From: a virus | Lineage: Duplodnaviria; Heunggongvirae; Uroviricota; Caudoviricetes | DNA: 8,050 bases | Strand: one strand, 5' to 3' | IMG/VR virus record: IMGVR_UViG_2695420855_000011 | Span: 1-8,050 of that record | Shown: positions 6,025 to 6,150 of the stretch, piece by piece | How the letters are laid out: each line of letters begins with the position of its first letter | How positions within the stretch are numbered: position 1 is the first letter of the stretch | The notes under the pieces: generated by a model | Seen by the model: the letters and a program-made list of their open reading frames with translations, nothing else | Told to the model about the DNA's origin: nothing | The model's database searches: none | Position numbers and translations under genes: made by a program

Positions 6025-6048
6025 GCAAAAACCTCGTTTTGAGGGGGT

Positions 6049-6069
6049 GTAACTTTTCGTGTAACTTTT
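6049..6069. repeat. Two GTAACTTTT repeats immediately upstream of the terS start
   Basis: GTAACTTTT at 6049-6057 and 6061-6069 (12-bp spacing), the same motif as inside terS. Confidence 0.4.
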
Positions 6070-6097
6070 TTGAAAAGCAAAATTTTCTACGAATGAG

Positions 6098-6150
6098 ACG
6101 GGGGGCGGTGTCCAGGGCGATCGACTTTCCGGCCGGAACACTCCCCCCCT
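6098..6150. other. GC-rich imperfect inverted repeat with nested palindromes upstream of terS; candidate cos-like packaging or operator site
   Basis: GACGGGGGGCGGTGTCC ... GGAACACTCCCCCCCTGTC enclosing CGATCG and CCGGCCGG, in the 127-bp gap between the 53-aa ORF and terS. Confidence 0.3.

Follow-up and report, generated by a model that had tools for sequence, protein, structure and literature searches.

A probable cos packaging site in an Escherichia coli phage satellite combines a helper-type nicking core with GTTAC repeats around terS

The region upstream of the small terminase subunit gene (terS) in the virus sequence IMGVR_UViG_2695420855_000011 is, judged by sequence comparison, very probably the cohesive-end (cos) packaging site of a phage satellite. 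The stretch analysed, comprising the 8,050 nucleotides (nt) at positions 1 to 8,050 of that record and hereafter called the window, is a rearranged copy of an approximately 8.5 kb Escherichia coli phage satellite of the phage-inducible chromosomal island (PICI) type. We consider it likely that positions 5795-6149 form the cos region of a satellite parasitising HNH-dependent, HK97-style phages of the Pankowvirus/Shiga toxin (Stx) type, with a nicking site (cosN) shared with the helper and a private binding site (cosB) for its own small terminase subunit (TerS). A preliminary description of the window had proposed that a nicking element, repeats and terS follow one another here as a packaging site in a satellite; comparative evidence, together with one published determination of phage termini, bears out this layout.

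A helper-type nicking core upstream of terS

Comparison with the cos sites of candidate helper phages, which the preliminary description had suggested, demonstrated that positions 6079-6149 are homologous, almost base for base, to the intergenic region between the HNH gene and terS of Pankowvirus-type Stx phages. When positions 5780-6170 served as the query in a sensitive search of 50,697 phage records, approximately 95 Stx-converting and related lambdoid phages matched at the 5' end of terS and, separately, at 6083-6149. For the latter segment, an 81-nt query was covered to 80% or more by 77 Stx-phage records; Salmonella phage FSL SP-016 matched the core at 95% over 42 nt. The core match in phages always lies between the HNH gene and terS (Stx2 phage 1717, phi330, BP-4795, 2851, YYZ-2008 and others), and no lambda-type core similarity was present among the phage matches. 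The satellite has this homology to the cos core of HNH-terS-terL phages and has terS immediately downstream, but the phage arrangement, with the HNH gene before the core and terL after terS, is absent, as the satellite carries neither an HNH gene nor a gene for the large terminase subunit (TerL).

On the minus strand, which is the sense strand of terS, the core begins with seven G residues (G-run, 6143-6149), the distal arm of a GC-rich inverted repeat and a conserved upstream cos element. A spacer and left flank follow at 6108-6142, with the flank TCGCCCTGGACAC at 6108-6120, then a 10-mer at 6098-6107 and a right flank containing an A-tract (CTCATTCGTAGAAAATTTT, 6079-6097). Written in full, the satellite core reads GGGGGGG-N35-(TCGCCCTGGACAC)CGCCCCCCGT CTCATTCGTAGAAAATTTT, and that of phage 1717 reads G11-N33-(TCGCCCCGGACAC)CGCCCCCCGT CTCACGCAGAGAAAAAATT. 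Across an alignment of 14 satellites and phages, six G columns of the G-run, the motif GGACACC (14 of 14 sequences) and the motifs TCTCA and AGAAAA are invariant, and the distal spacer is lineage-specific. The distance from the 3' end of the G-run to the 10-mer is 35 nt in 10 of 11 lineages, the exception being phage 1717 (33 nt), and the spacer varies in sequence; the G-run itself ranges from 7 to 11 residues, with no compensating change in the C-run. This constant spacing points to a bipartite, protein-recognised element, for which a cosQ-like or nuclease-positioning role of the G-run may be proposed, the likeness to lambda cosQ being one of analogy. The conserved signature consists of the G-run, 35 nt, and then GGACAC, the 10-mer and CTCAYKCRNAGAAAA.

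The same architecture was found in most of 20 further loci from one Acinetobacter metagenome-assembled genome and from other Enterobacterales genera (Morganella, Proteus, Serratia, Atlantibacter, Erwinia, Kluyvera, Kosakonia, Enterobacter, Citrobacter, Phytobacter, Buttiauxella and Pantoea), and the G-run commonly keeps its fixed distance there. The cos element usually lies just after the HNH gene in these loci, and TCTCA and AGAAAA recur upstream at cos in most of them. As a separate observation, the cos match of the PPompW prophages (LC567818, LC567822 and others; equivalent to position ~2915 of locus L004) stops at the G-run, where an ISEc20 element of the IS110 family is annotated; such an insertion would inactivate the cos site of these prophages.

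A 10-nt 3' cohesive end is predicted at 6098-6107 on the minus strand (CGCCCCCCGT in terS sense; ACGGGGGGCG on the plus strand), with nicks at 6097/6098 and 6107/6108, from homology to the end of the Stx1 phage Lys8385Vzw. This phage was sequenced from induced particles and assigned a cos site with the 3' cohesive 10-mer CGCCCCCCCT by PhageTerm (PMC7946995). Its GenBank record ends in GGACACCGCCCCCCCT and begins with CTCACGCAGAGAAAAAAT, with terS at position 230, so that the record boundary falls exactly inside the conserved core. Nearly all other phage matches are prophage records, and only Lys8385Vzw both starts and ends in the core; the satellite TerS identified nine loci in IMG/VR, which are prophages predicted in isolate genomes and whose contig ends are uninformative. 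The satellite 10-mer is identical in Stx2 phage 1717, phi330, phage 2851 and Stx1a_10012 and aligns with that of Lys8385Vzw. The variants occurring in E. coli phages (CGCCCCCCGT, CGCCCCCCCT and CGCGCCCCCT) are mirrored in satellites, the latter two being found in a Salmonella element and a second E. coli element. A 10-nt 3' overhang generated by HNH-stimulated TerL cleavage is the HK97 paradigm (PMC9410871).

The GC-rich imperfect inverted repeat with nested palindromes to which attention had been drawn earlier is indeed present: its arms lie at 6092-6105 and 6143-6156 (14 nt, 86% complementary), further arms at 6100-6119 and 6130-6149 (20 nt, 75% complementary), and the palindromes CGATCG (6118-6123) and TTCCGGCCGGAA (6127-6138) inside the spacer region. 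We rejected the inverted repeat as significant by itself, as the window holds 49 inverted repeats with at least 12 of 15 matches. It folds no better than shuffled sequences (z -1.3 as RNA, -1.7 as DNA), and the 14-sequence alignment contains no covariation (68% of cells pair, a value equalled by 493 of 500 shuffles). Inner helix pairs are broken in 10 of the 14 aligned sequences, and a Hafnia prophage has lost the C-run (10-mer CTCGCCTTCT) and kept the G-run. Hairpin and symmetry are not conserved properties of the core, and the significance of the GC-rich element comes from its conservation across genomes. The proposal of a symmetric nicking site was accordingly abandoned: the predicted cut lies in the terS-proximal arm, ~20 nt off centre, and it is the 35-nt G-run spacing, not the symmetry, that is conserved.

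The same data bear on the possibility that the element acts as RNA, forming a terminator or attenuator hairpin that lies between the upstream 53-aa open reading frame (ORF) and terS and would control late-gene expression. The predicted structure reaches -32.9 kcal/mol and directly follows the stop codon of that ORF (6152-6313), but it has no U-tract, and a scan of the element yielded no terminator-like site on the minus strand and no promoter-like site, nor was any Rfam family found in the region. With neither fold excess nor covariation, and with a Hafnia prophage that lacks the C-run, the terminator or hairpin reading was rejected as extremely improbable.

GTTAC repeats and the TerS helix-turn-helix

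Between the predicted cut and the start codon, the sense strand carries two copies of AAAAGTTACAC with a 12-bp period (6047-6069, minus strand), a cosB-like proximal cluster that provides two candidate TerS sites. The 9-mer GTAACTTTT occupies 6049-6057 and 6061-6069 and extends to the 11-mer GTGTAACTTTT at 6047-6057 and 6059-6069. The two 12-bp-spaced repeats at 6049-6069 in the preliminary description are therefore real and exceed chance expectation, but they are only two of eight GTTAC sites in an array that runs into terS. The remaining six lie within the gene at 5795-5865 on the minus strand, again with a 12-bp period within clusters: four direct sites at 5837, 5819, 5807 and 5795 (nt 184, 202, 214 and 226 when counted along the sense strand) and two inverted sites at 5861 and 5849, found at sense nt 160 (GTAACTTCT) and nt 172 (GTAACTTTT). 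The motif AAAGTTAC has six matches in the window, all within 5795-6068, against 0.28 expected, and none of 200 shuffles reached six.

The intragenic sites are encoded by the linker peptide AVTSDVTFQVTKPKKVTKKVTEKVT, in which the Val-Thr dipeptides are written as GTA-ACT (inverted sites) or GTT-ACN (direct sites). The same layout, inverted GTAACT followed by direct AAAAGTTACA, is present in three TerS genes that are 55-62% identical in protein, located on an E. coli element (L015), on a Salmonella element (L019/L020) and in a Hafnia alvei prophage with the gene order HNH-terS-terL-capsid-portal. Each of these loci has at least one AAAAGTTACAC site between cos and the start codon, and the Salmonella element and the Hafnia prophage have the 11-mer at the aligned position; this position holds GTTAAC in Pankowvirus phages and GTAAAC in SP016-like phages. 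All 17 Val-Thr valines of the linkers use GTT or GTA, versus 12 of 18 valines elsewhere in the same genes (Fisher p = 0.019) and 32 of 64 in the other genes of the window.

The repeat motif co-varies with the variant of the TerS helix-turn-helix across Enterobacterales. In 23 loci, sites around terS were compared with the rest of the locus per 660 nt. Loci with a KTARVKG[W/C]QL helix carry 9, 10, 5 and 4 GTTAC sites around terS, against about 1 per 660 nt elsewhere, a 4-10 fold enrichment in four lineages. With a KTA[R/K/Q]VKGSQL helix, 5, 5 and 5 GTTAAC sites are found (rest of the locus about 0.1 per 660 nt), and loci with a KSARSKGSQL helix tend towards GTAAAC, with 1-4 sites (3-4 in about half of the loci) against 0-0.6 per 660 nt. 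The first site after the cut occupies the same alignment columns in every lineage, the motif alone being exchanged. Because the motif follows the helix-turn-helix variant at a fixed position, the GTTAC repeats are probably TerS binding sites; co-variation is the main argument for this assignment.

The gene itself (5536-6024, minus strand) encodes a 162-aa protein assigned to Pfam Terminase_2 (E 1.2e-10) and phrog_641. Its Shine-Dalgarno sequence and start codon had been placed correctly in the preliminary description: GAGG lies at 6032-6035 and ATG at 6024-6022, within 6022-6035 on the minus strand, and RefSeq genomes annotate the same start. The protein consists of an N-terminal helix-turn-helix, a linker of KVT repeats and an oligomerisation/C-terminal part. 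Its identity to Pankowvirus TerS is 45% overall, 61% in the helix-turn-helix and 71% in a 45-aa core, with an unrelated linker; Pankowvirus TerS has no KVT linker, and its phages carry five GTTAAC sites between cos and terS instead. None of the INPHARED phage matches listed has a TerS closer than 45% to that of the satellite, and GTTAC-type TerS in E. coli was found only on satellite-like elements. A sequence search against solved structures returned only weak matches to SF6-type TerS DNA-binding domains (E 0.18-0.64), consistent with the Pfam assignment and uninformative on specificity.

These features weigh on two other readings of the site. Plain mimicry of the helper cos, as in P4 and SaPIbov5, would mean that the core and A-tract are read by either TerS and that GTTAC is irrelevant to packaging, being a by-product of the KVT linker or a set of sites for another protein. 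The core and A-tract are common to the helper phages, FSL SP-016 has almost no space for repeats between cos and terS, and the codon-bias test is modest; furthermore, a 15-bp A-tract-containing site at +15 to +29 from the cut is the minimal TerS site of HK97 and suffices for its TerS (PMC11331095), to which the satellite A-tract after the cut may be analogous. Mimicry nevertheless leaves unexplained why the satellite retains its own diverged TerS and why the motif switches with the helix-turn-helix variant at the same position, and the two non-coding upstream sites are exact 11-mers matching the intragenic consensus. We regard it as unlikely, although it is the strongest of the rivals.

Headful packaging from a pac site offers another reading, in which the array in and around terS would serve as a pac site like those of SPP1, SF6 and P22, the GC-rich element being incidental. 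The satellite TerS belongs to Terminase_2, the family of SF6 and SPP1 G1P, and recognition sites inside terS are typical of pac phages. However, no non-coding sequence of the phage group is more conserved than the GC-rich element, which adjoins the HNH gene and, in Lys8385Vzw, a phage classed as cos and not pac, coincides with defined 3' cohesive ends. Headful packaging is on this evidence very improbable.

We also considered the GTTAC repeats as replication iterons and rejected this interpretation: a separate iteron-like set is present beside RepA, and the same GTTAC layout occurs beside terS in the Hafnia prophage. The iteron-like set comprises three to four repeats of TTTT(A/G)CTCCCCACTTTTT, ~84 bp apart at 6878-7090, just downstream of the RepA helicase gene, and is probably the satellite replication origin.

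A model of packaging with helper enzymes

With neither HNH nor TerL of its own, the satellite must borrow both from a helper. In the model that we favour, the shared cosN, consisting in terS sense of the G-run, 35 nt, GGACAC, CGCCCCCCGT and CTCATTCGTAGAAAA, would be the helper's own nicking site, and helper TerL and HNH endonuclease would cut the satellite core, giving rise to a 10-nt 3' overhang at 6098-6107. The satellite TerS would bind, through its helix-turn-helix, the eight (A)AAGTTAC sites (two between cut and start codon, six in terS) as a private cosB, and helper TerS would read GTTAAC at the equivalent position. A helper-like core and C-terminal part may allow the satellite TerS to recruit helper TerL to satellite concatemers, and packaging would proceed from 6097 towards terS and the capsid homologue. 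The repeats appear to be read only by the satellite's own TerS. The earlier suggestion that the satellite carries its own packaging signal holds in this sense for the repeats, which look satellite-specific, but not for the nicking core, which is the helper's. Candidate helpers are common: the Pankowvirus-type HNH-cos-terS module is present in 1253 of 5426 complete E. coli genomes, in up to eight copies, especially in Shiga toxin-producing E. coli (STEC).

Several points weigh against this model. The cleavage position rests on homology to a single PhageTerm-based report on a relative, and the 10-mer of the O26:H11 copy is substituted (CGCCCCCAGT), which may be a tolerated change or a sign of decay. 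The linear phi330 record (L003, PV189401.1) breaks inside terS, 43 nt before its end, and not at the core; this break is probably arbitrary, though unexplained. The KVT repeats could have been selected as protein, with the DNA motif as a by-product, and the lineages entering the codon test (p = 0.019) are non-independent. GTTAC and GTTAAC are one base apart and the recognition helices differ by very few residues, so that cross-recognition is possible; and a study cited in PMC11331095 is reported to show that SF6-type TerS binds DNA through helix-turn-helix contacts that are largely sequence-independent. Separately, the note attached to the phi330 record is contradictory, describing it as both circularly permuted and cohesive-ended, and the record was left out as termini evidence.

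The gene upstream of the satellite cos core is the 53-aa coiled-coil ORF at 6152-6313, not HNH. A second 53-aa ORF lies just downstream of terS (5363-5524, minus strand) and corresponds to the TerS core on its own, with no helix-turn-helix. Its product is homologous to positions 89-126 of the phrog_641 profile (E 1.3e-6), shares 36% identity over 33 aa with the TerS core of FSL SP-016, and is 60% conserved in the Salmonella satellite (L020:1701-1856). BLASTP of this ORF against the satellite TerS and against Pankowvirus TerS gave no alignment. The product could be a decoy that interferes with the helper TerS ring, or the ORF could be a gene remnant.

The satellite and its place among known elements

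The satellite terS region is present in 220 of the 5426 E. coli genomes at 90-99% identity, and many of the carriers among the matches listed are STEC. The element integrates at tRNA-Pro beside yejM. Full copies of 8.2-8.9 kb carry, in order, int, a small ORF, an AlpA-like helix-turn-helix gene, the Icd/ash region, small ORFs, DUF4222, the RepA helicase gene, three small ORFs, terS, the 53-aa ORF and a major-capsid-protein homologue. Pfam and PHROG searches and the annotated full copies revealed no genes for tail, lysis or portal proteins and neither terL nor HNH, and the element is therefore a PICI-type satellite; it has the integrase, AlpA-type regulator, own replication module, terS and capsid gene and the size of that group. 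The order of terS before capsid is one PICI variant catalogued by SatelliteFinder (PMC10085698). The capsid homologue is a 308-aa protein of the HK97 fold and shares 24% identity with the Hafnia prophage capsid domain.

The natural island and the window are not colinear: positions 1-239 are a second copy of 4450-4688, positions 7627-8050 are a second copy of 3322-3745, and ~1.5 kb is absent (the RepA N-terminus, DUF4222 and small ORFs). Positions 3746-4449 join the end of int to the end of the capsid gene, and both chromosomal flanks overlap there by 22 nt (3962-3983); this overlap is the att core, and the junction is attP-like or tandem, as expected if the element is excised or in tandem. Such rearrangement could suggest an inactive relic, the remnant of a prophage or satellite in decay that is passed on vertically at tRNA-Pro with a fossil cos-like region; the changed 10-mer of the O26 copy and the many copies at one locus would fit. 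Against decay, the ORFs are intact, and 11 sampled copies with differences elsewhere share an identical core and sites. The Salmonella element, at ~50% protein identity, keeps the gene order and the sites, and the window contains an att-spanning int-to-capsid junction. We judge a relic to be improbable.

Elsewhere in the window, Rfam matches at gathering level identify a C4 antisense RNA (803-890, minus strand, 77.6 bits) and isrK (912-988, minus strand, 66 bits) in the Icd/ash region, which separates AlpA from the replication genes; they indicate a P1/P4-type RNA immunity module in the satellite. Two related elements were also observed. A second E. coli satellite-like element near ETT2 (L015:5348-6474, L016) has an HNH-like gene upstream (phrog_589, E 5e-31), followed by a cos core with the 10-mer CGCGCCCCCT, six GTTAC and one GTTAAC sites over 227 nt, a 62%-identical TerS and a 281-aa capsid homologue. 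The Salmonella TerS (P0011) is followed on L020 by a 51-aa ORF and a capsid homologue; on L019 different ORFs follow, with a protease-capsid fusion and portal 3 kb downstream, and the Salmonella satellite may there sit beside or inside a prophage.

Among known packaging systems, the satellite most resembles the cos phages with HNH partners (HK97 gp74/gp1/gp2; Lys8385Vzw, 1717 and BP-4795): its core is homologous to Pankowvirus cos, terS is immediately downstream, and the cut is closely followed by an A-tract, a feature also of the HK97 TerS site. It differs in having no HNH or TerL, in a TerS of the Terminase_2 helix-turn-helix type unlike HK97 gp1, and in repeats that are GTTAC and not GTTAAC and lie mostly inside terS. 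The likeness to lambda that had been noted earlier extends to the order of elements (accessory element, nick site, repeats, terS, as in cosQ-cosN-cosB R3/R2/R1 with Nu1) and possibly to repeats read by an N-terminal TerS helix-turn-helix, but the type is HK97/HNH with a predicted 10-nt 3' overhang. Lambda itself has a 12-nt 5' overhang and a cosN whose dyad is centred on the cut; it works without an HNH partner, and its TerS belongs to an unrelated family. The satellite has no such centred dyad, its predicted cut is off-centre in the GC-rich element, the overhang mapped in its relative Lys8385Vzw is a 10-nt 3' one, and its repeats continue into terS.

Four strategies are known for satellites (10.1101/2022.09.08.507074; PMC6092414): a helper cos (P4, SaPIbov5), an own TerS with a pac site (SaPI1-type), re-programming of helper TerS by Rpp (EcCICFT073), and a full HNH-terS-terL-capsid set (capsid-forming PICIs, cf-PICIs). 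By sequence, the element described here unites the first two strategies, pairing a helper-type nick site with a TerS and repeats of its own, and neither this combination nor this cos site was described in the open-access literature searched. Like SaPIbov5 and P4, it carries a copy of a helper cos, and like SaPIbov5, whose homologue is Ccm (PMC5052747), it encodes a capsid homologue; helpers of these cos-type satellites need HNH (PMC5052747; 10.1101/2022.09.08.507074). Those elements have no TerS of their own, however, and use the helper for both recognition and cutting. As in pac-type Staphylococcus aureus pathogenicity islands (SaPIs) with TerS-S, the satellite TerS may redirect helper TerL to a satellite-specific signal, and as in SPP1/SF6 pac, with pacL/pacR around and inside gene 1, its candidate TerS sites form two clusters partly inside terS; unlike these headful systems without a defined cohesive-end site, it keeps a helper-type cos core. 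The PICI EcCICFT073 keeps a helper-like cosN and lacks the helper cosB (PMC6092414). It is likewise an E. coli PICI that changes packaging specificity, but its Rpp re-programmes the phage TerS without replacing it, whereas cf-PICIs such as EcCIEDL933 carry the full HNH-terS-terL-portal-capsid set and not only terS and a capsid homologue.

We tentatively put forward, as a possibility with less than even support, that this arrangement represents a fifth route of satellite hijacking, in which the HNH/TerL core of the helper is left unchanged and the recognition layer is replaced by an own TerS and a GTTAC code against the GTTAAC of the helper. Three quarters of the repeat code would then be carried by Val-Thr codons of the terS frame, the use of GTT or GTA allowing sites in both orientations, and the ORF at 5363-5524 may act alongside and could poison the helper TerS ring.

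Stx phages, together with related lambdoid phages, are drivers of evolution in pathogenic E. coli. If the proposed mechanism is true, a satellite found in 4% of complete E. coli genomes, mostly STEC among those listed, would affect Stx-phage yield and gene transfer. The separation of cutting, in a shared core, from recognition, through private repeats and TerS, would provide a natural test system for how a helix-turn-helix TerS reads DNA, and a series for swapping specificities is already at hand in the pairs GTTAC and W/C, GTTAAC and S, and GTAAAC and SARS. The cos signature (G-run, 35 nt, GGACAC, 10-mer, CTCAYKCRNAGAAAA) could likewise be used to annotate the termini of prophages and satellites in a large group from Enterobacterales.

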